Of a stretch of DNA of 64,000 nucleotides, positions 2,607-55,658 are shown one piece after another; the stretch's first letter is position 1; each line of letters starts with the position of its first letter. This DNA is from Candidatus Moraniibacteriota bacterium (GTDB taxonomy: Bacteria > Patescibacteriota > Minisyncoccia > Moranbacterales > GCA-2747515), in contig CP065011.1 of assembly GCA_016699795.1 (NCBI GenBank), positions 354,474 to 418,473 on the forward strand, read 5' to 3'. A model generated the notes under the pieces. That model made no database searches. It was not told the DNA's origin and saw only the letters and a list, made by a program, of their open reading frames with translations. Both the position numbers and the translations under genes were made by a program.

Positions 2607-3512
2607 CTAAAAAATATCATCTACTTCTTCATATACAGATTTCAAAACAGACACGGCATCTTTTACCCCTGTCTTATACGTATCATTCGCTTTTTTTATT
2701 GCACCAAGATATGCATTTCGAGCAGTCTCTCTTTGACTTTTCGTTTCAGACCCAAATTGCTTAAGCATTTCTGAAAGGGCTTCTCTTGCTCCAGAAAGAT
2801 CAGTTTTAAGCTGTGTTCGGATTTCTGAAAATTCCTGCCCGCCTTCACAAGATTTAGTGGCGGTTTCTATTGCTGTTCGAATAGACTCCTCATACGTAGC
2901 ATAAAAAGTATTAACTTGCTCTTTATACGAATCAGTCACAAGAGCGTCCCATGAAGCTCTATAGTTTTTTCTTGCAGTTGCAACTTCTGTTTGTCGATTT
3001 AAAGCGAGAGTTTCCATAGTTTTTTGAAATTTCTCAACAGCGTCTTTTTGTTCTTGAGTTTTTGCCTCACTCAAAAGTTTTTCATATATTCTTTGTCTAT
3101 TTTTCAAAGCCTCCTGCACTTTCTGCTCATAAGTAGAATCCGTTTGATTTCTCATTTGCATGGTAACTTGCTCACGATTTTGTATTCTTTTCAAAAAAGC
3201 TCCTTGCTTTACATCTATATTTTTAAGAAAATTCATTTTTTCTTTTGCGAACGTTTCACATGTTTTTATCTGTCTTTGTTCTTTTATTTCTTCCCTCTTT
3301 TCTTCACGGTTATTAATTTTCTCTTGCATTTTCTCATTTCTCTCTTCTGCTTGTATAGTCTTTTTCTCAACATTTTTTGCTCCCATACCCTCACCCGTAC
3401 CGTTAGAATTCTCTCCTTGAGCTAAAACAGACGCTGAAAAAACCATTCCTCCAAAAAGGAATAAAAAGAAAGAATAAAAAATAGCTTGTTTATTTTTCAT
3501 ATATTTATTCAT
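2607..3512 (-). CDS. Hypothetical secreted coiled-coil protein, Glu/Lys/Gln-rich
   Basis: 301-aa ORF. N-terminal hydrophobic signal (FFLFLFGGMVFSASVLA) is followed by a highly charged heptad-like sequence. Confidence 0.4.
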   Translation of the reverse strand: MNKYMKNKQAIFYSFFLFLFGGMVFSASVLAQGENSNGTGEGMGAKNVEKKTIQAEERNEKMQEKINNREEKREEIKEQRQIKTCETFAKEKMNFLKNIDVKQGAFLKRIQNREQVTMQMRNQTDSTYEQKVQEALKNRQRIYEKLLSEAKTQEQKDAVEKFQKTMETLALNRQTEVATARKNYRASWDALVTDSYKEQVNTFYATYEESIRTAIETATKSCEGGQEFSEIRTQLKTDLSGAREALSEMLKQFGSETKSQRETARNAYLGAIKKANDTYKTGVKDAVSVLKSVYEEVDDIF

Positions 3513-6403: not shown

Positions 6404-7540
6404 TCACAACATTTGACTATCGTCAAGAATTTTTCGTTCTTTCGAGCTTGCGATAAATCTTTTATGATAAGCAATATTAGCCACCAACCCCAAAGCGAAT
6501 GCTGTGGCCAAAAGAGAGCTTCCTCCATAACTCAAAAGAGGCAATGGGATACCTGTAACTGGAACAAGCCCAATATTCATACCTATATTGATCATGATTT
6601 GTATAAAAAACATACAAAAAACACCCGACGCAATAAGAAAACCAAAACTATCTCCTGCTGTCATTGCAATCAATGCAATACGATAGAGAAGAATACTATA
6701 AAGCAAAAGAATAAAAAATGCCCCAAACACACCAAAACTTTCCACTATGGAAGCGAAAATAAAATCGGTGTGTGATTCTGGAAGAAAGGCTAATTGTGAT
6801 TGAGAGCCACTTCCTACACCTTTTCCAAAAAGACCCCCCGAACCAACTGCAATTATAGATTGCATAACATTATAACCACTTCCAAGAGCATCTTCTTCGG
6901 GACGAATAGTTGTAAAAATTCTGTCTTTTTGATAATCCTCAAGAAAAAACCACGAACTAAATGCTCCAAAAAAAGCAATAGCTATCATAGCAAAAACATA
7001 TTTAACTTTCATATCAGATACAAAAAGCATTCCTGCCCAAATAAAAAGAAGAACGATTGCCGATCCCAAATCAGGTTGTAAAAGAACGAGTCCTACAAGA
7101 GCAAATACTAAAACACACGAAACAATAATCCTTCCTATATCCCCAAAAGTTGCTCGCTTTGCAACGAAAAAACTTGCCAAGAAAAGAACGAGAACAACTT
7201 TTACCATTTCCACAGGCTGTAAACGAAAAAAGCCTAAATCAATCCATCCAGAAGTTCCTCGAATACCTTCAAAAAAAAGTACAACCACAAGAAAAGCGAT
7301 GCCCAAAAAATAAAGCGCTGTACTTATTTTCTTTAAAGCTCGATATGAAATGTGAAACATGAGAAAAAAAACAGAAATAGAAATTCCTGAAAAAACAAGT
7401 TGTTTTAAGAAGAATTGCGATCCATCATTGTTTTTCCCCGCATCAAAACCATATAAAGTAACTAATCCTAAAAGAAGAAGAAGGAAAGAAGAAGAAATTA
7501 ATACAAGGATATCTGAAATTCCTCGTTTCAATATACCCAT
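6404..7540 (-). CDS. SEDS-family peptidoglycan glycosyltransferase FtsW/RodA
   Basis: Polytopic membrane protein of about 10 TM with conserved SEDS segments (GSGSQSQLAFLPESHTDFIFA, LPLLSYGGSSLL). Confidence 0.8.
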   Translation of the reverse strand: MGILKRGISDILVLISSSFLLLLLGLVTLYGFDAGKNNDGSQFFLKQLVFSGISISVFFLMFHISYRALKKISTALYFLGIAFLVVVLFFEGIRGTSGWIDLGFFRLQPVEMVKVVLVLFLASFFVAKRATFGDIGRIIVSCVLVFALVGLVLLQPDLGSAIVLLFIWAGMLFVSDMKVKYVFAMIAIAFFGAFSSWFFLEDYQKDRIFTTIRPEEDALGSGYNVMQSIIAVGSGGLFGKGVGSGSQSQLAFLPESHTDFIFASIVESFGVFGAFFILLLYSILLYRIALIAMTAGDSFGFLIASGVFCMFFIQIMINIGMNIGLVPVTGIPLPLLSYGGSSLLATAFALGLVANIAYHKRFIASSKERKILDDSQML

Positions 7541-8471: not shown

Positions 8472-8599
8472 TGGATATAACCTGCAGTGTTCTCGGCACC
8501 GACCTACTCTCCCCCCAAGGGGGTACCATCGGCGCTGGAGCACTTAACTGCTGTGTTCGGGATGGGAACAGGTGTACCCGCTCCGCTCAAGGCACCGAG
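8472..8599 (-). rRNA. rrf: 5S rRNA
   Basis: The reverse complement contains the 5S hallmarks CCCATCCCGAACACAG, GTTAAGTG, CGCCGATGGTAC and GAGAGTAGGTCGGTGCC, with the terminal helix closed by CTGCAGTGTTCTCGG/CCGAGAACACTGCAG. Confidence 0.8.
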
Positions 8600-8837
8600 A
8601 ACACTGCAGATTATATTTCGAAAAATTGACAAAGGAACTTCACTTCACTAACCGATACCCTTTTGTTGGAGTCAAAAAACTCAAACAAAAGGAAAAAAAA
8701 TGAGATTTTAAAGATTATTACATTTATTAGTACTCCTCGACTGAACCCCTTGCAGGGCGTACATCTGGAGCCTATCAACCTGATCATCTTTCAGGAAATG
8801 TTTTCGGCGCGAACGCCGAAACTTGCCTCATCTTAAG

Positions 8838-8875
<38 letters not shown>

Positions 8876-9060
8876 TCCGAACGTAGCTACTCGACAGTGC
8901 CGCTGGCGCGACAGCCGATACACCAGAGGTTCGTTCTTTCCGGTCCTCTCGTACTAGGAAAGACTCCCTTCAAGCAAGGACGCCTACGGCAGATAGAAAC
9001 CAACCTGTCTCACGACGGTTTGAACCCAGCTCGCGTACCACTTTAATTGGCGAACAGCCA

Positions 9061-9119
<59 letters not shown>

Positions 9120-9150
9120 GCGCCGTCGATATGAACTCTTGGGCGCGATA

Positions 9151-9181
<31 letters not shown>

Positions 9182-9406
9182 ATGATCTTCCACACTCCTA
9201 CATGTGATGGTCGGTTCACTAACTTCCACTTTCGTGACTGAGCGACTTGTAAGTCTTTCAGTAAAGCTGGCTTCTGCGTTTGCACTACCAGAGCGATTTC
9301 CATCCGCTCCTAGCCAACCTTTGTAAACGCCTCCGTTACTTTTTGGGAGGCGACCGCCCCAGTCAAACTACCCACCAGGCACTGTCCCCGGACCGGTAGT
9401 TATACT

Positions 9407-9582
9407 CAAAAAAGAGTGAAGACTGGAAGAAAAGATAAAAGAAAAAATCTTTTATCTTAATAATTCAAAAAAAATATTTTCCATGCTTAATGTTGGAAAA
9501 ATTACCTATTTCGTTTTGCTTACTCTCAGCCTTCGGATCCGTTTAAGTATATCTAACGGCCCAGGGTGAGAATAAAAATTTC
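9407..9582 (-). other. AT-rich expansion or intervening sequence inside 23S domain V (helix 78/79 region by eye-alignment to E. coli)
   Basis: About 175 nt of about 25% GC sequence interrupts otherwise conserved 23S blocks. E. coli has about 45 nt here. Confidence 0.5.
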
Positions 9583-10559
9583 AGCAGAGTGGTATTCCAT
9601 TGGCGACTCCACTTCAACCAAAGTCAAAGTTTCAAAGTCTCCCACCTATGCTCGGCAACTAAAATTTCTATTCAATACCAAGTTGTAGTAAAGCTCCACG
9701 GGGTCTTTTCGTCTTGCCGTAGGAAGGGGGCATCTTTACCCCCGCTGCGATTTCACCGAGCTTCTCGTTGAGACAGTTCCCAACTCGTTACACCTTTCAT
9801 GCGGGTCGGAATTTACCCGACAAGGAATTTCGCTACCTTAGAACGATTATAGTTATCGCTGACGTTCACTGGCGCTTCGGGGATTGGCGTGAACCGCTCC
9901 CGTTAACGTTCCAGCACTGGTCAGGTGTCAGCCCCTATACATCAGCTTTCGCTTTAGCAGGGACCTGTGTTTTTGGTAAACAGTCGATTGGGATCTTTCG
10001 CTGCGCCCCACCCTTTGCAAGCAAAGAGCGGGGAAGGCATATCCCTAAGTTACGCCTAGCTGTTTTGCCGAGTTCCTTAACGAGAAATCACTCATTCGCC
10101 TTGGGCTACTCGCCCTGTCCACCTGTGTCGGTTTTCGGTACGGACAATATATTACGAACCTTAGAAGTTTTTCCCGGTACCGCGCTCCCTTTTCTTCTCT
10201 CTTGCAAGCAAGAGATTCGGATGATACCTCGAATTATTGTGTGGCGGATTTACCTACCACACATTCTCGATACCCCCACGCAAATCCAATAATGCGCAAA
10301 AGGTACAGCAATACGTCACTCCATCGAATAATATATTGGTGCCGGAATATTAACCGGCTGTCCATCGACTACGCCTTTCGGCCTCGCCTTAGGATCGACT
10401 TACCCCGGGATGATTATCATAGCCCGGGAAACCTTGGACTTTCGGCGTCTTGGAATCTCACCAAGATTGCGGTTACTCATGCCAGCATTCTCACTTCCTT
10501 GCGCTCCACCGCGGGTCACCCCTACGACTTCAGTGCACAAGGAACGCTCTCCTACCAAT

Positions 10560-10650
10560 CGTTTACGTCTTATTTTACACAAAACAAAAAACATATTCAT
10601 TTATAAAAAAATGAATACTTACGTCTTATTTAAAATAAGACGTAAACGAT
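10560..10650 (-). other. Intervening sequence (IVS) hairpin replacing 23S helix 45
   Basis: The palindromic pair CGTTTACGTCTTATTTTAC ... GTAAAATAAGACGTAAACG sits between conserved CACCGAAG and GGTAGGAGAGCGTTC blocks, which is the classic helix-45 IVS site. Confidence 0.55.
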
Positions 10651-11335
10651 TTCGTATCTTCGGTGCCATGCTTAAGCCCCGTTACATTTTCGGCGCGAAA
10701 TCTCTAAGCTAGTGAGCTATTACGCACTCTTTAAAGGATGGCTGCTTCTAAGCCAACCTCCTAGGTGTCTGAGAAATTTCACTTCCTTTACCACTGAGCA
10801 TGGACTTGGGGACCTTAGATTACGATCTGGGCTGTTCCCCTTTTGAGATCCGAGCTTAGCCCCGGATTTCTGACTGCTTCGATACCACTACGAGCATTCG
10901 GAGTTTGATTGAAATTCCTACGGCGAACCGCGAAATCTCATTCAGTAGCTCTACCTCTCGTAGCTAATTAACGAAACGCTAGCCCTCAAGCTATTTCGGA
11001 GAGAACCAGCTATTGCCGAGTTCGATTGGAATTTCTCCCCTACGCACAAGTCATCCCCGCGTGTTGCACAGCGCGTGGGTTCGGGCCTCCTCTCAGTATT
11101 ACCCGAGATTCACCCTGCTCATGCGTAGCTCACCCGGCTTCGGGTCTTGTCCTTGCGACAAATCGGCCTATTAAGCCTCGCTTTCACTGCGCCTCCAGAG
11201 CATCGCCCCTTAAGCTGCCGCAAAGATCAAACTCGCTGGCCCGTTCTGCAAAAAGTACGCAGTCATCCCGCAAAAGCGGGACTCCTACTCTTTGTTGGCG
11301 TACGGTTTCAGGTCTATTTCACCTCCCTTTCGGGA

Positions 11336-11377
<42 letters not shown>

Positions 11378-11574
11378 TGAAGTAATATTTAGTCTTGGAA
11401 GTTTAGTGCTCCCTGATTCAAACGGAGTTTCACCGGCTCCGCCCTACTTGAGAATGACCTCAAGAAAAAAGATTTTTTTTCGTATACGGGACTTTCACCC
11501 TCTTTGATCGCTCTTTCCAAAGACGTTCTACTAAAAAATCGTTTTTCACCCCGATTAAACGAGTTAAGTCACCT

Positions 11575-11645
11575 CGCAACCCCTGATACCAACACTACCA
11601 ACAAATATTTTACACTTATTTGCAGTGTTGGTATCAGGTTTAGAC
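11575..11645 (-). other. Extended hairpin in a 23S domain I variable region
   Basis: Perfect inverted repeat CCTGATACCAACACT ... AGTGTTGGTATCAGG embedded in domain I. Confidence 0.4.
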
Positions 11646-11648
11646 TCT

Positions 11649-11679
<31 letters not shown>

Positions 11680-12767
11680 ACAATTGTTTTCTATTCCTTC
11701 GGGTACTAAGATGTTTCAATTCCCCGAGTTTGCCACATCATCCTATGTATTCAGATGACGGTTTGCCATTAAGGCAAGGGTTACCCCATTCGGAAATCCA
11801 CGGATCAAAGCTTATTTGACAGCTCCCCGAGGCTTATCGCAGTCTTTCACGTCCTTCATCGCTTACTTCAGCCAAGGCATCCTCCGTACGCCCTCGCAAT
11901 CTTTAATATAATTCTCATTTTCTCACTTCCCATACAATATACAATCGAAATCATATACGTTTGGGAAGGTCGGTTAGCAAAGAGAAATCTCCTTGCTAAC
12001 TTCGCAGTTATTTTTTTCCTACTTTATTCATATAGTGCAGTCACCCCTGATCCTTCGCAATCAGACACAATGCAAAATATGTACCCAAATTGTCAACTTG
12101 CTCTTTCTTTTGCGAAAGCATTCTTTTTCCAAAGTTTTAGCGACTAAAAACTTTCAAAATGGAATGTTTTCGCAAAAACTTAATTTTAAGAAAATTCAAC
12201 AACCAAGCACGAGCCGGTTTTTGATTTTTTATCTTTTCTTTCCTCTTAAACCTCACCAGAAAGAAAGAAAATTATTTTTTAAACTAACACAAGAGCGATT
12301 GTATCATCTTGTAAGAGATTGTCAATAGTACGGCAAAGTTATTCAATTAATCCGAAAAATTAAAAAATAAAAATTATAGAATCAAAAACATAATTAAAAA
12401 TAAAAATATCAAAAAATGGCTCTAATAAGAAATATTCCTATTAAAAAATAAAGTTTAAAATATTTCTCATTCCAAAGTATTTTTTACTTTTTTAGAATGA
12501 AAAATATGGAGATTTAAAGAAATAATACACATACAAACAACATACACTCTTCTGTCCTAACAAAACGAAAATAAAATGAGCACGCGTATACTATTTTTAA
12601 GTAGTTCCTTTAAAAATAAAAAGTTAAATTCTAAAATAGCCTTTAGCATTTCAATTCGGCACAATTGCCTTGTTCAAATATGAAGCTATATTTCATTTCC
12701 ATTTCATTTAAAATCAAAAGATCTACTTAGCTAATTTACAAATGAAAAGATTTCTTTTTTAAAAGAA

Positions 12768-49555: not shown

Positions 49556-50746
49556 CTATCCCTTCTCTCCGTCTCTACAAGGATTCCATTTGGATGTAAT
49601 CCGTAACATTCCTTCAGAAACAGTATAGTATCGATCTAAATTTTTTTTCATCAAAAGATCTATCATTTTTTTTCTCAAATAATAGCTTCGACACCAGCCC
49701 ATACATCCTAAATAAGAATTTACTCGAGAAAGTATTTGGTATCGCTCTCTTGTGTTCAATAAAGTTCTTTTTTTAAAAGAATTTCTCATTCTCCCTATAC
49801 TTATAAAAAAATTCCTCTTTATTCTTGGACCAATATACGTACGATACGGTTTTATACGCACGCCAAGAAAAGAAACCCCATTAAAAAGTGGTTGTAAATA
49901 TATTTTTTTTGGATGAATACTTAAAGCCAAAGAATGGCACAAATATTCAGAAATTTTTGGAAGAATTTCAAGAAGAAAATCTTTCTTCTTGTCCATAAAA
50001 ATCATATCGTCCACATATCGTCCATACCATTTCACACCAAGAGTTTCTCGAACAAAATGATCAAACCCACTCATATATATATTTCCAAAAAGTTGGGAAG
50101 TAAGATTCCCAATAGGAAATCCACTCCCTTCTTTGGCAAAAAACAAACTTTTTTTGCGAGGCAATCCAATCCAATCTTTTCTTTGTCCTTTTATAAAACA
50201 ATTATCTGTTGGATCGTTAAAAATAACTTTTTGAAGAAGATACAAAATTAAATCAAGATTATCTTCTTTTTTCTTCTTACGAAAAAAAGCTGTGCATATC
50301 ATATTCCATAGGATAGTACGATCCATTGACATAAAATATCCCTCGATATCCAATTTCAAAATCCAACATTCTTTCTGATAATTATCAGAACACGAGCGAA
50401 GAAAGTAATTCACACGATCAATTCCACGAGAAGTTCCTTTCTTTTTCCGACAGCTATACGTATCAGCAATAAATTGTTTATCAAAAACAGGGTTTATATA
50501 TTGGAAAAGAAGATGATGAACGACACGATCTCGAAAGTCAGCAGCAAATATCTCCCTCTTTACCGGTTTATGTACAATAAAACAAATACTCGGGCGGATT
50601 TCATACCGACGTTCGACAATGTCTTGATACAATTCCATGATATTTTTTTCGTATTCGATTTCAAAAGACACGGCATTCATAGTCCCTCTTTTATTTTTTC
50701 GAGCAACATAATAGGCAGAGAAAAGATCAAAAAGAAGTTTTTCCAT
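49556..50746 (-). CDS. Diversity-generating retroelement (DGR) reverse transcriptase
   Basis: RT motifs, including GFPIGNLTSQLFGNIYMSGFD and YVDDMIF. The IGxxxSQ motif is diagnostic of DGR RTs. The start is probably the internal Met (MEKLLFDLFSAYYVARKNKRG). A template repeat lies immediately upstream. Confidence 0.85.
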   Translation of the reverse strand: MEKLLFDLFSAYYVARKNKRGTMNAVSFEIEYEKNIMELYQDIVERRYEIRPSICFIVHKPVKREIFAADFRDRVVHHLLFQYINPVFDKQFIADTYSCRKKKGTSRGIDRVNYFLRSCSDNYQKECWILKLDIEGYFMSMDRTILWNMICTAFFRKKKKEDNLDLILYLLQKVIFNDPTDNCFIKGQRKDWIGLPRKKSLFFAKEGSGFPIGNLTSQLFGNIYMSGFDHFVRETLGVKWYGRYVDDMIFMDKKKDFLLEILPKISEYLCHSLALSIHPKKIYLQPLFNGVSFLGVRIKPYRTYIGPRIKRNFFISIGRMRNSFKKRTLLNTRERYQILSRVNSYLGCMGWCRSYYLRKKMIDLLMKKNLDRYYTVSEGMLRITSKWNPCRDGEKG

Positions 50747-50790
50747 AAAAAAACGAAAAAAGTACCCGAAGGTACTCCTTTTCGAAATCA

Positions 50791-50971
50791 ATACTTAAGG
50801 CACCGAACCGTTAACCCGTTAGCGCGGTTGTTGGAATTGGCGGGATTCACACTCCCAGAGTTGAAGTTGAGGTTCAACGCATTTGTACCACTTACACTAC
50901 TCGACCAATAGTTCCCGTTACTCCCCTGATTGTTGAAACTGCCATTGGAGTTGTTCCGGTTGCCCGCGACG
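50791..50971 (-). repeat. DGR template repeat (TR)
   Basis: 181 bp, about 90% identical to 51611..51791. All 18 mismatches are plus-strand T here, which is A on the minus coding strand, against C/G/A in the other copy. ORF-track ORF 50788..51147 is the TR read in the frame inherited from the target gene. Confidence 0.85.
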
Positions 50972-51151
50972 AAAGAATACCCACTCCACTTCTTGTGCAT
51001 TGTCGTAACATCACACAAAACTTCCAAAAAAAATGGAAGAAATTCCTTATAAAGAAACCTCTTTATAAGAGGGGTATTGAATTGATTAAGGGCACTCCCG
51101 CTTTCACACGTAGCAAAAGACGGCTCTCGCCCACATACAAAGAGCATATCG

Positions 51152-51496
51152 TTAGGTACAGCTAGCCTCCCATCCGGTAAGTTGTTTGGAAACCAATTCT
51201 ATGGATTCTTGCAAAACAACAAATTTTTTGAGGCCTATTTGACGAAGATCTTTTAGTATTCGCAATAAAACGCGAATATTTTCAACGCGTTCTCGAGCTA
51301 AACTAATATTCTTTTTTCTTTCTAATCGATCTTTATTGGCACGATAAATACACATCATCATCGTAATCGTTTCGTTTTTTATATGCTCACCCAGAGTAAA
51401 ACGATAATCCCGAGAAAAATTATTCACAACAAGAAAAAGTTCCAGAAGTAAATCATAGCTCGCTTTATATACCGGAAGATTATCGTACGTTGCCAT
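51152..51496 (-). CDS. DGR accessory variability determinant (Avd)-like small helical protein
   Basis: About 115 aa from MATYDNL, predicted all-helical, with a C-terminal GxW (KQLTGWEA) as in Bordetella phage bAvd. Lies between the target gene and TR. Family assignment is by position and weak similarity. Confidence 0.55.
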   Translation of the reverse strand: MATYDNLPVYKASYDLLLELFLVVNNFSRDYRFTLGEHIKNETITMMMCIYRANKDRLERKKNISLARERVENIRVLLRILKDLRQIGLKKFVVLQESIELVSKQLTGWEASCT

Positions 51497-51556
51497 ATAT
51501 TTTTTGAAAAAAATGAATGAAAAATATTTTCTGAAGGAAAAGGGGAAAAACTCAAA

Positions 51557-51573
51557 TTCCGCCTCCGGCGGAA
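51557..51573 (-). other. GC-rich hairpin downstream of VR (possible DGR homing-associated stem-loop)
   Basis: TTCCGCC-TCC-GGCGGAA about 35 nt past the target stop codon, preceded on the coding strand by GGGCGGGG, in an otherwise AT-rich context. Confidence 0.4.
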
Positions 51574-51607
51574 CCCCGCCCAAAATGCAGGGGAGTCAAA
51601 GCAGAAA

Positions 51608-52783
51608 TCAATTCTTAAGGCACCGAACCGGTAACCCGTTAGCGCGGTCGTAGGAATTGGCGGGATTCACACTCCCAGAGTTGAAGTAGAGGTTCAACGC
51701 AAGCGTACCACTTACACTACTCGACCAATAGAACCCGTAACTCCCCTGATTGCCGAAACCGCCACTGGAGCGGTGCCGGTAGCCCGCGACGGATAATTTT
51801 AAAGTACTCGCGTACGCGGTAGCGCTATCAGTAATTCCTTCTGCCGAAACAAGAACACTCCATTCTGGTTGAGTAGGAAGGCGGAAACCTGGAGGGCATG
51901 GATTATTTGTACCATCGACTCCTTGCCAGAGAGTATTGTTTTGTGGACTTCTCCAATCATAAGGAGAACTGGGAGCAAGAATAAATTGTCCATGTCCAGG
52001 AGTATCCAAAGAAGAAAGCGTTCCTGTTGTGGTACTAGTTGTAAGTTGATGTCCATCAGTTCCTCTTCCCCACTGATAATAATGTCCGTAAGATTGCGAA
52101 TCATTGAATGCTGTAGCTACGCGTGTTGCACCGAGATTTCTGTCGAGCCATACTTTTCCGTCTTTGGCGGTAATAGGACTATAAATTATTCCTTGAAATC
52201 CGCAAGGAACTCCGGAAGAAACACTACTACACGAATAAAGACATGTTGTTGAACATACAGATGGTGTAAAACATTCAGTATTGGTCGAACACGTTGCTCC
52301 GGGAGGCTTAAGGAGTTTTATATCCGCATTCGTTCCTGTTCCGAAGGTAAATACTTTATTTTTCGTTCCTGCATTAAAATCCACATCGCTTGTTTGTATC
52401 CAGCTATTCTGCGTCCCCGTAATCGTTACACCACTTGCATCTGCTTGGATATTTGCATCTTTGGAAGCATACTCCGTCCAGTTTTCTTGATTGTTAGTAT
52501 GTGTGGCAGTATTTGCTGTTACTCCTCCTATCCAACTACTTTGAATCCATCCATACGTTGCTCCTTTTATATTTTTTGAAAAGAAAAAAGAGACTCCTCC
52601 TAAGATAAGAATGGTTAAGAGGAAAGTAGAAGTGAGTTTTCTTTTTTTGGAGAGGAAAGAAAAAAAAGAAGAAAGAGAGATTTCTTTTTTTTCTTTTATA
52701 GAATAAGTATTGTTTTTTTCTTTTCGTATTCCATCAAGAGTTCTTTGTAGTTTGGGGGGAGTATTTTTTTTCGTAAACATCAT
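51608..52783 (-). CDS. DGR target (variable) protein: membrane-anchored, FISUMP/C-type-lectin-fold domain with C-terminal VR
   Basis: N-terminal TM and a Cys-rich stalk. GHYYQWGRG ... NPCPPGFRLPTQPEWSVL ... GYRHRSSGGF ... YGFYWSSS matches the Fibrobacter-type paralogous/CLec-fold DGR target pattern. The last 60 codons form the variable repeat. Confidence 0.8.
   Translation of the reverse strand: MMFTKKNTPPKLQRTLDGIRKEKNNTYSIKEKKEISLSSFFSFLSKKRKLTSTFLLTILILGGVSFFFSKNIKGATYGWIQSSWIGGVTANTATHTNNQENWTEYASKDANIQADASGVTITGTQNSWIQTSDVDFNAGTKNKVFTFGTGTNADIKLLKPPGATCSTNTECFTPSVCSTTCLYSCSSVSSGVPCGFQGIIYSPITAKDGKVWLDRNLGATRVATAFNDSQSYGHYYQWGRGTDGHQLTTSTTTGTLSSLDTPGHGQFILAPSSPYDWRSPQNNTLWQGVDGTNNPCPPGFRLPTQPEWSVLVSAEGITDSATAYASTLKLSVAGYRHRSSGGFGNQGSYGFYWSSSVSGTLALNLYFNSGSVNPANSYDRANGLPVRCLKN
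51611..51791 (-). repeat. DGR variable repeat (VR) at the 3' end of the target gene
   Basis: Cognate of the TR. It differs only at positions that are adenine in the TR coding strand. Confidence 0.85.
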
Positions 52784-53033
52784 ACTATTTTATTGTATAA
52801 TAAATGTTCTTTTTTTTGTTTGTGAAATAATCTTTTTTCTTTTTTTAGTATAGGATGTTTTGTGTTTTTTGTGAAATGGGAGTTTTATTCACACTTTTTT
52901 CTGTCTTTTCTCCCTGAGGAAAAGGGATTACCGAGTCTTTCTCTCTTTCTTCTCTCCCTTTGCCAAAAGGGAGTACCCGAGTCTTCGAGGGGGAGGGATT
53001 TGTATTGATTTCACAAAAGAATTTCATACAAAG

Positions 53034-53073
53034 AAAATCCCCCTCAATCCCCCTTTTTCTAAGGGGGAGGAAT
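53034..53073. repeat. 40-bp perfect direct repeat, copy 1 (hairpin-containing)
   Basis: AAAATCCCCCTCAATCCCCCTTTTTCTAAGGGGGAGGAAT, identical to 54401..54440. Contains a CCCCC-N9-GGGGG inverted repeat. Followed at 53118-53232 by a degenerate repeat about 115 bp long. Confidence 0.7.
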
Positions 53074-53293
53074 TAGCTCTGGATTGCCACTTCACTCGAA
53101 GACTTCTCCTCGCAATGACTCTTTTTCCGTCTCCGCGAGATTTCGAGTCTTCGAGAAATCGTGGCGGTCCATGCGGATCGGACTGATTTGCCACGACTGA
53201 GCACGGCTTCGCAAAGACGGAAAGAAGTCCGGGCTAGATTGTCCCTGTGGAATAAAATCCAATTCCAAAGAGCAGTTTAGAGATTTCTAATCA

Positions 53294-53572
53294 TTATTTC
53301 TTAAAAGAGTATTCTTCCAACGTTTTGAGTGTCATTTGTACTGTAGGATTAATCGTAGACACAAATATTGAAGAAGGAAATTGTTTCCTTAAAGGAGTGA
53401 GAACCTCATCAGCCCAAGAGGGTGTCAAAACTTTCACACCAGAAAAATCAATTTCTACTTTTTCATTCTTTTTAATTTCAGGAAGAGTATAGGCAGCCAA
53501 AACTAAATAAGCTTCTTTCCCCGCAGGACGAGAAACGAGCATTTCACCAAATTTTTTAAGCTCTATTTTCAT
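53294..53572 (-). CDS. DUF4325 (STAS-like) small protein
   Basis: 92 aa. The MKIELKKFGEMLVSRPAGKEAY...EKVEIDFSGVKVLTPSWADE pattern matches the DUF4325/STAS-like family. Confidence 0.5.
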   Translation of the reverse strand: MKIELKKFGEMLVSRPAGKEAYLVLAAYTLPEIKKNEKVEIDFSGVKVLTPSWADEVLTPLRKQFPSSIFVSTINPTVQMTLKTLEEYSFKK

Positions 53573-53577
53573 ACATT

Positions 53578-54156
53578 TTATTCATAGATAAAAGCAAGAC
53601 ATCCACAAATTTTTTCCTTATTTTCTAGTATACGCATTTCCCCTTTACAAAGATAAAGGTGTGCATTTCCAGAAAAAAAATCTAAAAAAATATCCATTTC
53701 TTCTACTACATTTTTTACAAATTTGAGACCATTTCCTCTGTTTTCAGGAGCCCGTCCAGATATTTTTTTTGTAAAAGCTACTTCAAGGGCATCTCGATCA
53801 AGAAGTAATGTAGCGTCCACTTTGTGAAGTGTTTCTAAGACACCTCTTCCTCTATCAGAAAGAAAAAGAGAGACTTTTCCTTCCGTATCTTTTTCATATC
53901 CAAATAAAACTCCTGGAACATCCTTCCAATTCCCAGCATTATGATCAAAAGAATTATTTCCAATTTCTCCGGCCAGCGCAGAAAAAAGATAAGCCCTTTC
54001 TTCGGGAACGCCCAAGCGGATAAGTTCTCCTGACATTCTCTCTAATCTTGCCTGAAAAACGTCTCGTGTTTCGCAATGCCAATCCGGAGAAATATCCTTC
54101 GGAATACATTCAGATCGAGAAAATTCATCTATACTTTTTTGGAGAGAAAATTTCAT
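53578..54156 (-). CDS. GHKL-superfamily ATPase (anti-sigma-factor / Ser-kinase-like HATPase_c)
   Basis: N-box-like GEIGNNSFDH, G1-like DRGRG and G2-like GNGL. Confidence 0.5.
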   Translation of the reverse strand: MKFSLQKSIDEFSRSECIPKDISPDWHCETRDVFQARLERMSGELIRLGVPEERAYLFSALAGEIGNNSFDHNAGNWKDVPGVLFGYEKDTEGKVSLFLSDRGRGVLETLHKVDATLLLDRDALEVAFTKKISGRAPENRGNGLKFVKNVVEEMDIFLDFFSGNAHLYLCKGEMRILENKEKICGCLAFIYE

Positions 54157-54400
54157 TTTTTTATCTTAGCAAAGAAGAAAAAAAATAACAACCATACTTT
54201 ATTTTTTAATTAAAAAATCCAAAAAAGCATGTCTTTAATTTTTAATTTTTTACCATTCCTAAAACACGCACCCTTACGGTATTTAAAGATAATCTGCAAA
54301 TCCAAAAGGATATTTTTTCCTTCCGTTTTCGCGAGGAGTCCGCGACGTGGCGGTCCATCTGAATTTCTGGATTACTTCGCTATGCTCACAAAGACGGAAA

Positions 54401-54440
54401 AAAATCCCCCTCAATCCCCCTTTTTCTAAGGGGGAGGAAT
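54401..54440. repeat. 40-bp perfect direct repeat, copy 2
   Basis: Identical to 53034..53073. Preceded at 54309-54400 by a degenerate copy of the same 115-bp repeat, and followed by a further partial copy. Confidence 0.7.
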
Positions 54441-54563
54441 CCGAACAACGAAAAGGAAATCTGGAGAGTTTTCCGCCAAAGGCGGATCGAGTCTCCATTC
54501 CTCGAAGAATCGTCGGTCGAAAAAACAGGAAGAAATAAAACTCATTCGCAAAAAAAGAAAGAT

Positions 54564-55658
54564 TTAACCCCGATACAAACAACTTTTTTCGTACACTTCC
54601 ACAAGTGATTTTGCACATAAAGAACTTTTGTAATGTTCTTCGGCATATAAATGACCGGCTTTTCCAAAAGATTTTGCTTTTTCTTCATTATCTAAAAGAT
54701 GTTCTACAGCATCAGAAAATTCACTACTTTCTTTGGCATCAGAAGCGAGAAATCCTGTTACCTGATCAATAATCCTTTCTTGTGCACCACCAGAAGAAAC
54801 AGCTACCACAGGAAGCCCTGCGTACATCGCTTCTTCCACAACAACAGCGCGGAAGTCTTCTTTGGAAACATACACAAAAACATCAGCGCAAGCATAATAA
54901 TGTTTCATATCATATTTTGGTACTTCTTCAGCAAAAAATACTCGATTTCCTAAACCTCTCGCCACAACTTCTGTTCGAAAAAAATCTACAAGATTTCCTC
55001 CACCAACACAAAGAAGGTATACATTTTCTCTTCTTTTGATCAAAGATGTGAGTGATTGAAAAAGAAACTGTGAATTCTTCTCTTGCGTCACACGAGAAAC
55101 TGACAAAAGTACTTTGGCATCACTTGGTATATCCCATTTTTTTCGAACAGCTGATCCATTGGGATCTAAAAAAAATTCAGGAACTACTCCCGTAGGAAGC
55201 ACTACTATTTTCTGATTTAATGATGTTGCCTTTCGAAGCATTTCTCCGATAATTTCTGTTGGAACTATTGTCGTATTGGGTAATTCTTTTACAAGGCGTG
55301 ATTTTTCTACAGAGATCGTATCTGAAACTGTTTGAATCCAAGGAACTCCCCTTTTCTTTGCCCATTCTCTCGCAATTTTTCCAAGACCATCATACTGTTG
55401 CGTATGCACGATATCTACATTCAAAGAATCAAGATCTTGTATAATCTGATGCGAATTCCACACAAGCCTCTTTCCAAAAATTTCTGTCACTCGATATCGG
55501 AAAACTCCCTCTTCCCGACCAAGACTCTTTCCCCGATGCGAAGCAAGTACGAAAACTACATGACCTTGTTTCATGAGTTCAAATCGCAAACTTTCTAAAC
55601 CTCCAGATGATCCACGAGGATTTGGATAGTATTTATTCGTAACGAAAGCAATTTTCAT
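54564..55658 (-). CDS. GT4 (group 1) glycosyltransferase
   Basis: Two Rossmann-like halves with an EEAMYAGLPVVA motif. Confidence 0.7.
   Translation of the reverse strand: MKIAFVTNKYYPNPRGSSGGLESLRFELMKQGHVVFVLASHRGKSLGREEGVFRYRVTEIFGKRLVWNSHQIIQDLDSLNVDIVHTQQYDGLGKIAREWAKKRGVPWIQTVSDTISVEKSRLVKELPNTTIVPTEIIGEMLRKATSLNQKIVVLPTGVVPEFFLDPNGSAVRKKWDIPSDAKVLLSVSRVTQEKNSQFLFQSLTSLIKRRENVYLLCVGGGNLVDFFRTEVVARGLGNRVFFAEEVPKYDMKHYYACADVFVYVSKEDFRAVVVEEAMYAGLPVVAVSSGGAQERIIDQVTGFLASDAKESSEFSDAVEHLLDNEEKAKSFGKAGHLYAEEHYKSSLCAKSLVEVYEKSCLYRG

Follow-up and report, generated by a model that had tools for sequence, protein, structure and literature searches.

We analysed a 64,000-nt stretch of the genome of Candidatus Moraniibacteriota bacterium (GenBank assembly GCA_016699795.1, contig CP065011.1, positions 354,474 to 418,473 of the forward strand), hereafter called the window, in which a cassette of two genes lies between direct repeats. 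The cassette is read on the minus strand and consists of a gene for a predicted divergent GHKL-fold ATPase, followed by a gene for a predicted STAS-like protein of the DUF4325 family. The notable point is that this GHKL/STAS-like operon is very common in Patescibacteria, the candidate phyla radiation (CPR), and that its family shows an excess of flanking duplications which are lineage-specific in sequence. The features of the locus are as follows:

53578..54156, minus strand: predicted GHKL-fold ATPase/kinase, divergent, 192 amino acids (aa), short form without an N-terminal helix-turn-helix (HTH) domain; from motifs, an AlphaFold2 (AF2) model and Foldseek.
53294..53572, minus strand: predicted STAS-like DUF4325 partner, 92 aa; from Pfam family PF14213 and an AF2 model.
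54157..54300, minus strand: A+T-rich spacer (16-24% G+C) directly upstream of the GHKL start; from the composition profile.
53034..53073, plus strand: 40-mer copy 1, on the downstream side of the genes, where it forms the right half of a complete palindromic element; from exact match and folds.
54401..54440, plus strand: 40-mer copy 2, on the upstream side of the genes, where the palindromic element is present by its right half alone; from exact match and minus-strand fold.
52953..53033, plus strand: left part of the complete element, which is like a repetitive extragenic palindrome (REP) or a miniature inverted-repeat transposable element (MITE); from inverted repeats and fold, with a three-part architecture as in other phyla.
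53122..53225, plus strand: inner repeat unit B, downstream copy; from alignment; overlapping with a long hairpin of high stability at 53079-53172 (GGATTGCCAC...GTGGCGGTCC).
54318..54400, plus strand: inner repeat unit B, upstream copy; from alignment; itself a long imperfect hairpin (TTCCGT..ACGGAA).
54454..54527, minus strand: block A, an extended hairpin (TTTTCGACCGACGA..GGAGAC..CCGCCTTTGGCGG..TCTCC) kept upstream of the cassette in related Moranbacteria.

The 40-mer AAAATCCCCCTCAATCCCCCTTTTTCTAAGGGGGAGGAAT has exactly two copies in the window, both on the plus strand and at the positions given by the original prediction, and no match was obtained in any of 100 shuffled windows. The identity of the copies stretches to 43 nt with one mismatch, starting at 53031 and 54398, and the hairpin TCCCCC-N9-GGGGGA, earlier described as CCCCC-N9-GGGGG, was found in both. 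No other long open reading frames (ORFs) lie between the copies, which flank exactly two genes, as had been noted. On the downstream side the 40-mer is preceded by hairpin 1 (52954-52973) and the CGAGTCTTCGAG palindrome (52978-52989), and a stem formed by GAGGGGGA (52987-52994) with TCCCCCTC (53038-53045) encloses the inner hairpin. The stretch 52953-53073 is a complete, somewhat expanded copy of the element, and 54401-54440 is its right half alone.

A second pair of repeats lies inside the first. The degenerate 115-bp repeat of the original prediction is real, with a local alignment z of 6.0 and a score reached by none of 300 dinucleotide shuffles, but it proved to be shorter (about 100 nt) and gapped, the two copies of unit B sharing 72% column identity with indels. 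The short blocks that had been named as shared are exact in both copies, namely CGTGGCGGTCCAT at 53160 and 54346 and CAAAGACGGAAA at 53212 and 54389, and the upstream copy has an inverted repeat with arms at 54316-54335 and 54385-54404. An extra exact CAAAGACGGAAA on the minus strand at 52155-52166, inside the target gene of the adjoining diversity-generating retroelement (DGR), is probably there by chance. Three CGAGTCTTCGAG motifs had been listed with approximate coordinates; two are exact (52978 and 53144), and the third (54501-54512) is on the minus strand and has one mismatch. The permuted order of 40-mer and unit B on the two sides, correctly described before, equals a nesting around the genes, with the 40-mer distal and unit B proximal on both sides. 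Flank-to-flank similarity beyond these two pairs is not significant (z of 1.1, 0.2 and -0.2 against shuffles), and a collinear duplication of the whole flank was ruled out, as no such similarity rises above shuffles.

Both flanks are G+C-rich islands (45-56%) against a background of 22-36%, and both fold as chains of hairpins, the left flank with a z of -6.3. The predicted folding energies were -46 kcal/mol for 53074-53175 (z=-6.4), -49.5 kcal/mol for 53110-53235 (z=-3.2) and -32.4 kcal/mol for 54440-54540 on the minus strand (z=-3.1). The hairpin units A and B share GTCTTTnCGA starts. A search of the flanks against Rfam gave no family at gathering or relaxed thresholds, only meaningless weak matches. 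Hairpin arrays of this kind yield spurious ORFs (window 53024-53194 and 54283-54618, both on the minus strand, and 1974-2324 in the related locus L001) with peptides like ...SSPLEKGGLRGIFF. The spurious ORF in L001 is annotated publicly as a 116-aa gene, and such repeat-derived ORFs probably pollute protein databases.

The 192-aa protein is, by motifs and model, a divergent GHKL-fold ATPase, as had been predicted. Three boxes are invariant in 36 homologues, E64...N68 (in GEIGNNSFDHN), D101-R-G-x-G105 and G141-N-G-L-K-F, and they correspond to the N box (E-x-x-x-N), the G1 box (D-x-G-x-G) and the G2 box (G-x-G-L / ATP lid). The AF2 model has a predicted local distance difference test (pLDDT) score of 91, and its top 50 Foldseek matches in the Protein Data Bank were all GyrB, ParE, topoisomerase II/VI, Hsp90 (TRAP1), histidine kinase or CheA, with E values down to 1.4e-4. 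Pfam gives no assignment for this protein; its homologue P0407 matches HATPase_c_2 at E=0.008, under that model's cut-off. The 92-aa protein is identified by its sequence as a STAS-like DUF4325 member, in line with the earlier assignment: it matches PF14213 with 40.2 bits (cut-off 23; E=2.9e-10), a family present in all 120 listed homologues. It has an invariant P51-S52-W53..D55-E56 (P-S-W-x-D-E), in which Ser52 begins the helix after the 'DFSGV' strand-loop. Its AF2 model has a pLDDT of 79.6, and many of the best fold matches are STAS domains (stressosome 7b0u, SLC26 STAS, RsbS, TM1442), these matches being weak (E 0.04-2, TM 0.4-0.5). NCBIfam gave no match for either protein. The A+T-rich spacer ahead of the GHKL gene is presumed to be the promoter region; its 3' end is kept in the related loci L001 and L249, and a sigma-70 consensus scan gave no match in it.

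The GHKL family comprises over 1800 protein clusters at 90% identity, or 648 at 50%, all about 190-260 aa long, with 45-75% identity, about 40 invariant residues and a uniform architecture. Of 80 metagenome loci, 77 have the DUF4325 gene directly downstream of the GHKL gene, and the same adjacency was seen in every NCBI, ENA and Logan locus examined; a 4-nt overlap of the two genes is the largest single class (30 of the 77 loci). We concluded that the pair is a conserved and obligate operon of Patescibacteria, with the two genes always adjacent. An N-terminal HTH domain is present in over half of the GHKL proteins and belongs to several unrelated families (MerR, HTH_11, HTH_24, MarR, ArsR). 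One protein of 320 aa, P0266, has a cytidylyltransferase-like domain (PF01467) ahead of the GHKL module, where others carry the HTH. The cassette was not found on plasmids, phage or viral contigs. A literature search found no paper on the GHKL/DUF4325 pair, and DUF4325 itself is seldom mentioned. Patescibacteria make up a large share of bacterial diversity, and little is known of their gene regulation and mobile elements; a common GHKL/STAS-like pair, in many members with a DNA-binding domain attached, offers a directly testable candidate for a lineage-specific regulatory switch.

The bracketing seen in the window was then looked for across the family. At 62 loci the 450 nt upstream of the cassette were compared with the 450 nt downstream, and a same-strand repeat of at least 40 bits was counted. 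Such a repeat was found in 13 of the 62 loci (12 of 61 when only independent loci are counted) and at none of 77 shifted pseudo-cassette controls (Fisher p=2.9e-5). A self-comparison of 453 kb gave 23 direct repeats with a spacing of 0.8-2.5 kb (22 without the duplicate locus L137). Thirteen of these, 12 being independent, lie tightly around the cassette against an expectation of 1.4 (P<5e-6); several of the remaining ones bracket it loosely, and one is the pair of template repeat (TR) and variable repeat (VR) of the DGR. Bracketing by duplicated local DNA therefore recurs in the cassette family, with sequences that are lineage-specific.

The bracketing repeats are 28-109 nt long and wholly different in sequence between lineages, and no junction or core motif common to those of different lineages was found. 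Four of them (L002, L131, L139 and L153) are terminator-like hairpins with T-runs. L176 and L186 carry, right behind the cassette, a second copy of the final 63-90 nt of the upstream ORF, with 98% and 86% identity, and in L166 the first 32 nt of the downstream ORF are repeated. The repeats of L176 (109 nt, 98%), L139 (39 nt, 100%) and L153 (48 nt, 96%) look recent. The common denominator is the duplication of insertion-site DNA and not a shared recognition sequence. Such an excess of local direct repeats provides a handle on the insertion and movement of genes in genomes with few classical mobile elements.

Two cassette loci have further peculiarities. The 65-nt repeat of L144 (241-305 and 1660-1724, 95% identity) brackets the cassette together with an extra 139-aa gene; it encodes MSQEKTKYIFVVGGV..GKG, by eye like the N-terminus of CTP synthase, and would then be an insertion-duplicated 5' end of a housekeeping gene. 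In L153 a hairpin stands directly before each copy of the repeat (1206-1230 and 2198-2222), in the same frame (ACG...CGTCTCTAC) and with stems wholly unlike in sequence, GCCCCGACGGGGC and GTAGCAATGCTAC, respectively; the paired hairpins look like a compensatory replacement of a structural module.

The window's own 40-mer is not confined to the cassette. A degenerate pattern of its core with 24 fixed bases was scanned against species-representative genomes, and the core was found in at least 120 stretches of genome DNA (L005-L124) as well as in 27 viral contigs (L221-L247). Among the matches listed were Gamma-, Beta- and Deltaproteobacteria, Chloroflexota, Nitrospirae, Acidobacteriota, Binatia, Poribacteria, Gemmatimonadales and others. 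The commonest form among them is AAATCCCCCTCAATCCCCCTTTTTCAAAGGGGGAGG, which is one loop base off the corresponding 36 nt of the window 40-mer, and an identical 32-nt core was seen in L021, L024 and L109. A complementary GGGGGGATTT lies about 30 nt upstream in about half of the instances listed, and in a subset a hairpin, a stem and a second hairpin together make up a three-part palindrome of about 80 nt, as in the left copy in the window. The copies in Methylococcaceae have terminal inverted repeats (GTAAGTATTCA...TGAATACTTAC), which are clear there and not in the window. Among the matches listed, 106 of 135 instances are intergenic, the flanking gene pairs are convergent in 32 cases and divergent in 11, and no recurrent gene adjoins the core. 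A query of the motif against plasmids gave no match, which may be an effect of low-complexity filtering. Rfam has no family for it, and a literature search found no paper quoting the motif sequence. We concluded that the 40-mer represents the conserved half of an interspersed REP/MITE-like palindrome of about 75-125 nt, the core of which occurs in many phyla; it is not a boundary specific to the cassette.

In common with REP sequences and bacterial interspersed mosaic elements (BIMEs), and with MITEs such as Correia/NEMIS, ERIC and RUP, the element is short, palindromic, mostly intergenic and enriched between convergent genes; it is multi-copy in some genomes, and it has terminal inverted repeats in Methylococcaceae. 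These known families are restricted to a species or genus, whereas the present core spans from Patescibacteria of 33% G+C to high-G+C genomes of the Xanthomonadales type and is also found in several further phyla. A hairpin core of about 36 nt with no Rfam family, little changed across phyla of very different G+C content, merits a study of its own. Because the element family is equally conserved between phyla, the perfect identity of the two 40-mers can not date their duplication, and a perfect repeat can in general stem from family-wide conservation rather than from recent duplication. No 40-mer within 4 substitutions was found in 563 kb of other Patescibacteria loci, and it is absent from the cassette flanks of L001 and L249; degenerate 40-mers in those flanks were also ruled out, as no alignment rose above shuffles. 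Since the motif is rare in CPR DNA and absent from the flanks of the closest relatives, two copies beside one operon in 64 kb are not the background expectation. With these counts, the generic genome-wide terminator that had been named as the opposing outcome was not seen locally.

Other copies of the core, and motifs like it, were noted in passing. The core stands in tandem arrays with periods of 56-61 or 137-169 nt in L084 (4790-4882), L050 (5487-5574), L043 (667-1035) and L010 (4983-5151); the intervening sequences are near-identical, and these are tandem repeats, not CRISPR-like arrays. In L200 the C5/G5 hairpin repeat GTCTCCTCCCCCTTTTAGGGGGAGCC occurs twice upstream of the cassette (422 and 1198, 776 nt apart), and in L209 a motif-like C5/G5 hairpin repeat, AATCCCCCCAACCCCCTTTATCAAGGGGGATTT, lies at 3360, about 400 nt upstream of the GHKL gene.

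Three lineages of Moranbacteria, represented by the window, L001 and L248/L249, have the pair in closely similar versions. Compared with the window, the GHKL protein is 74% identical in L001 and 73% in L248/L249, where the DUF4325 protein is 83% identical. The neighbours of the cassette are a glycosyltransferase and the DGR in the window, a cytochrome-b5 gene and a secreted protein gene in L001, and the end of a ribosomal-protein operon with RuvX and a 143-aa protein in L248/L249; no homologue of the genes adjoining the cassette in L248/L249/L250 and L001 was found in the window. Block A lies upstream of the cassette in all three lineages, the window copy being 82-96% identical to L001 1967-2028 and L249 807-875, and L001 and L249 share 74 nt at 93% identity immediately downstream of the cassette. 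L001 has a second copy of block A downstream (spacing 1396 nt) and internal tandem modules, D2 and D6; the L001 flank modules have no copy in the other 14.7 kb from the same genome (L216). As the flanks are partly conserved with the cassette where the neighbours differ, they are part of the unit and not of the site, and the view of the flanks as a simple decayed tandem array was not borne out. In Moranbacteria the operon and its G+C-rich non-coding flanks, which form hairpins, thus travel together, the whole unit being roughly 1.5-1.7 kb long.

The hosts of L001 and L249 are closely related and syntenic at the GT4 locus (GT4 89%, SpoU 85% and RecR 96% aa identity). Their cassettes encode proteins of 85% and 96% identity and are 90% identical at the nucleotide level over 976 nt plus block A, and both neighbours differ. 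Because units of such identity sit between different genes in syntenic relatives, the unit has been relocated, or both of its borders rearranged, between the two lineages. The divergence of the cassette between relatives tracks that of the hosts, so that a recent horizontal transfer is ruled out. The cassette is a self-contained module whose contexts differ between genomes, in agreement with the earlier remark that it is not obviously tied to neighbouring genes.

We explain the locus by a conserved GHKL/DUF4325 operon with travelling flanks and REP/MITE-like 40-mers, and by an insertion of the cassette that would have duplicated its target, and we consider this whole explanation about equally likely to be right or wrong. 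The recurrent duplications around the cassette family suggest relocation of the module. Since bracketing by different local duplicates recurs, (re)insertion of the cassette would duplicate the insertion-site sequence or recombine through it, and the 40-mer pair of the window would stem from such an event and not from two independent insertions of the element. A number of observations weigh against this explanation or parts of it. The core is so conserved that two independent copies of the 40-mer would also be identical, and beyond the two repeat pairs no collinear duplication links the flanks. Exact look-ups of the window's GHKL protein and of its relatives P0001 and P0121 gave no entry. Neither an empty site nor a strain variant was found, and hence the insertion with duplication is inferred, not observed: synteny with the window is lost past the glycosyltransferase orthologues (L216-L220), which gave no empty site, and none was present for the neighbours of L176 among the loci compared. 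As the divergence of the cassette matches that of housekeeping genes, the relocation may be an ordinary rearrangement rather than active mobility. Relatives without repeats, which the original prediction had counted as adverse, are frequent: about 80% of the family loci have no detectable flanking repeat, and the closest relative with both flanks available, L001, does have one. This lack of repeats fits decayed old insertions, and equally a process that only sometimes leaves repeats. On the protein side, the TM-scores of the GHKL fold matches are modest (0.36-0.41), and the 192-aa protein stays below the Pfam HATPase_c cut-off (E=0.19; 12.6 vs 26.4 bits). No sigma factor or PP2C gene adjoins the window cassette, and none is recurrent at the other loci examined; hhalign of the GHKL protein with SpoIIAB and of the DUF4325 protein with SpoIIAA gave a probability below 1%, although this is a weak test. 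A simple consensus terminator scan called no terminator in 52500-54700, having missed the 40-mers because their 9-nt loop is over its limit.

If the bracketing is a coincidence, an old resident operon lies between two regions that were independently invaded by one REP/MITE-like element, as a full and a truncated copy, and the inner 115-nt units belong to the same kind of local hairpin module, with no movement of the cassette reflected. Independent copies of a core that occurs in many phyla, in some cases identical over 32 nt, would be identical anyway; the element prefers the 3' regions of genes, its absence from the L001 and L249 flanks means that it arrived after the lineages split, and the lack of collinearity between the flanks fits as well. 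We nevertheless hold coincidence to be unlikely, with both of the only two copies in 64 kb lying within 250 nt of the same 0.9-kb operon, the motif absent from the other CPR DNA, a second, nested pair bracketing the same genes, and bracketing by unrelated sequences recurring at 12 independent loci, far above expectation. The version first put forward, that a pre-existing tandem array of about 115-bp units decayed and that the cassette entered it or lies around it, draws on the related hairpin modules of the flanks (A and B, with their common starts) and on the internal tandem modules of L001. There is no array elsewhere in the window, the order of the repeats is nested around the genes and not serial, and the flanks belong to the unit; we consider this version very improbable.

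Another possibility is a cis-mobilisable cassette, moved in trans by a host tyrosine recombinase (Xer/integrase) or an HUH transposase, with the repeats as either attL/attR-type junctions or IS200/IS605-type hairpin ends; pdif modules, cis-mobilisable elements (CIMEs) and integron cassettes may be compared. In common with pdif modules (Acinetobacter), CIMEs and integron cassettes, the unit is 1.0-1.4 kb long, has 1-2 genes and no mobility gene, and is bounded by repeated, hairpin-capable sequences in variable contexts. It differs from them in that its repeats are direct, lineage-specific, 28-109 nt long and sometimes coding ends of neighbours, in having no attC boxes, and in not having been found on plasmids or viral contigs. 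An integron attC was ruled out, as no pair of R'' (RYYYAAC) and R' (GTTRRRY) boxes 40-130 nt apart occurs on either strand of the whole window. Integrative elements duplicate the end of their target gene, as do e14 in icd and tRNA-targeting islands. The restored gene ends of L176, L186 and L166 are of this sort, in L176 and L186 with the upstream ORF end repeated after the cassette; the inserted segment is here only about 1.2 kb long and has no integrase, and the repeats of the window are non-coding. The relocation of the unit between close relatives along with its flanks, the many palindromic hairpins among the repeats and a tyrosine integrase 1.7 kb from the cassette in L125 also speak for mobilisation. 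No core or boundary motif is common to the repeats of different lineages, most loci have no repeats, and no recombinase was found among the ORFs in or adjoining the window cassette; mobilisation of this kind therefore seems to us improbable. It would likewise be a bold and rather doubtful step to regard the GHKL/DUF4325 pairs of Patescibacteria as a new class of tiny recombinase-less mobile cassettes, inserting beside or into gene ends and terminator hairpins with long, variable target duplications of 28-110 bp. If true, the insertion route would be one undescribed among bacterial elements, such as a capture primed by hairpins or homology in reduced genomes with natural competence, and the target in the window would be a cross-phylum hairpin element, perhaps itself a mobile structured DNA or RNA. 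As it stands, the locus resembles known kinds, namely a partner-switching-like pair, a REP/MITE-like element and a repeat-bounded cassette.

With regard to function, the GHKL protein would probably bind its STAS-like partner in a nucleotide-dependent manner. It may also phosphorylate Ser52 of the partner, akin to a switch of the RsbW/RsbV type; this is only suggestive, from an invariant Ser at the N-terminus of a helix, which we take to be the position of the phosphorylated Ser of SpoIIAA. The output of the pair would probably be DNA binding or transcription, since more than half of the family has an N-terminal HTH of several unrelated kinds. Like RsbW-RsbV and SpoIIAB-SpoIIAA, the pair combines a small GHKL-fold protein with a small STAS-type protein, encoded by adjacent and often overlapping genes, and the STAS-like partner keeps an invariant Ser at the start of a helix. 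Unlike in those systems, the GHKL gene comes first, its product bears an additional, conserved N-terminal stretch of about 60 aa and finds its best fold matches in GyrB, ParE and Hsp90 rather than in anti-sigma kinases, many members carry an HTH, and DUF4325 is a separate Pfam family. With neither a sigma factor nor a PP2C gene nearby, the order of the genes reversed and no sequence homology detected, the pair does not appear to be a member of the RsbW/RsbV family; our reading is that it would work like a partner-switching pair outside that family. Of the original description as a partner-switching-like module, the GHKL plus STAS-like pair stands, and the classic sigma factor and PP2C phosphatase are absent.

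A functional alternative is a selfish toxin-antitoxin or defence module, in which a toxic or effector activity of the GHKL ATPase would be restrained by DUF4325 and the patchy contexts would reflect addiction behaviour rather than a regulatory housekeeping role. The small size of the pair, the overlap of its genes and their variable contexts would fit such a module; the cassette adjoins an MNT/HEPN pair in L002-L004, genes like those of type IV secretion systems lie next to it in L002 and L125 (together with the integrase in L125), and DUF4325 has been found elsewhere coupled to VapC-like PIN genes (PMC5499597) and in an accessory region of a prophage (PMC7924643). For a conflict system, though, the family is unusually conserved in sequence and uniform in architecture, its divergence follows that of the host, and the cassette often stands among housekeeping genes (PolA/Fpg, DnaG/sigma-70, ribosomal operon/RuvX). 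PADLOC-DB gave no significant match for either protein, the best being DrmA (E 0.0097) and PtuA (E 0.034) over short stretches. We think such a role improbable for the pair.

Read in the direction of the genes, the 40-mer copies form the C5/G5 hairpin ...GGGGGAUUGAGGGGGA, followed by UUUUUUU in the upstream copy and by UUUUCUUU (U4CU3) in the downstream one. A hairpin with a U-run plausibly fits a role as terminator or insulator, and the suggestion of a duplicated terminator is to that extent plausible. The upstream 40-mer would end or insulate the transcript of the glycosyltransferase gene, and the downstream one would end that of the cassette.

The neighbours of the cassette in the window are as follows:

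54564..55658, minus strand: family-1/4 glycosyltransferase, upstream neighbour, outside the cassette; Pfam Glycos_transf_1, E=3e-30.
49556-50791: reverse transcriptase (RT) of the DGR.
51152-51583: Avd of the DGR.
51608-52783: target gene of the DGR, Fib_succ_major-type.
50784-50971: TR of the DGR, inside the ORF 50788-51147.
51604-51791: VR of the DGR, given as the 3' end of the target gene.

The hairpin array directly follows the stop codon of the glycosyltransferase gene. In L216-L220 the orthologues of this gene (63-64% identity) are followed by other genes, and the cassette and hairpin modules are absent after them. The DGR beside the cassette is real, with RT, Avd, target gene and a TR and VR that share 188 nt at 90% identity; the link to the cassette that had been suggested is weak, as an RT adjoins the cassette in only one of about 100 other loci. 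In L142 (397-1287) a DGR-type RT, 30% identical to that of the window, lies directly upstream of the GHKL gene. In L131 a 23S_rRNA_IVP/Avd-like gene (6986-7363) lies directly downstream of the cassette. DGRs being common in CPR, both placements may be due to chance.

Elsewhere in the window, no 16S rRNA gene was detected in the 64 kb. The 23S rRNA match on the minus strand (8706-11906) extends over 3201 nt against a model of 2925 positions, which implies one or more insertions, and it is followed by a 5S gene at 8491-8599.

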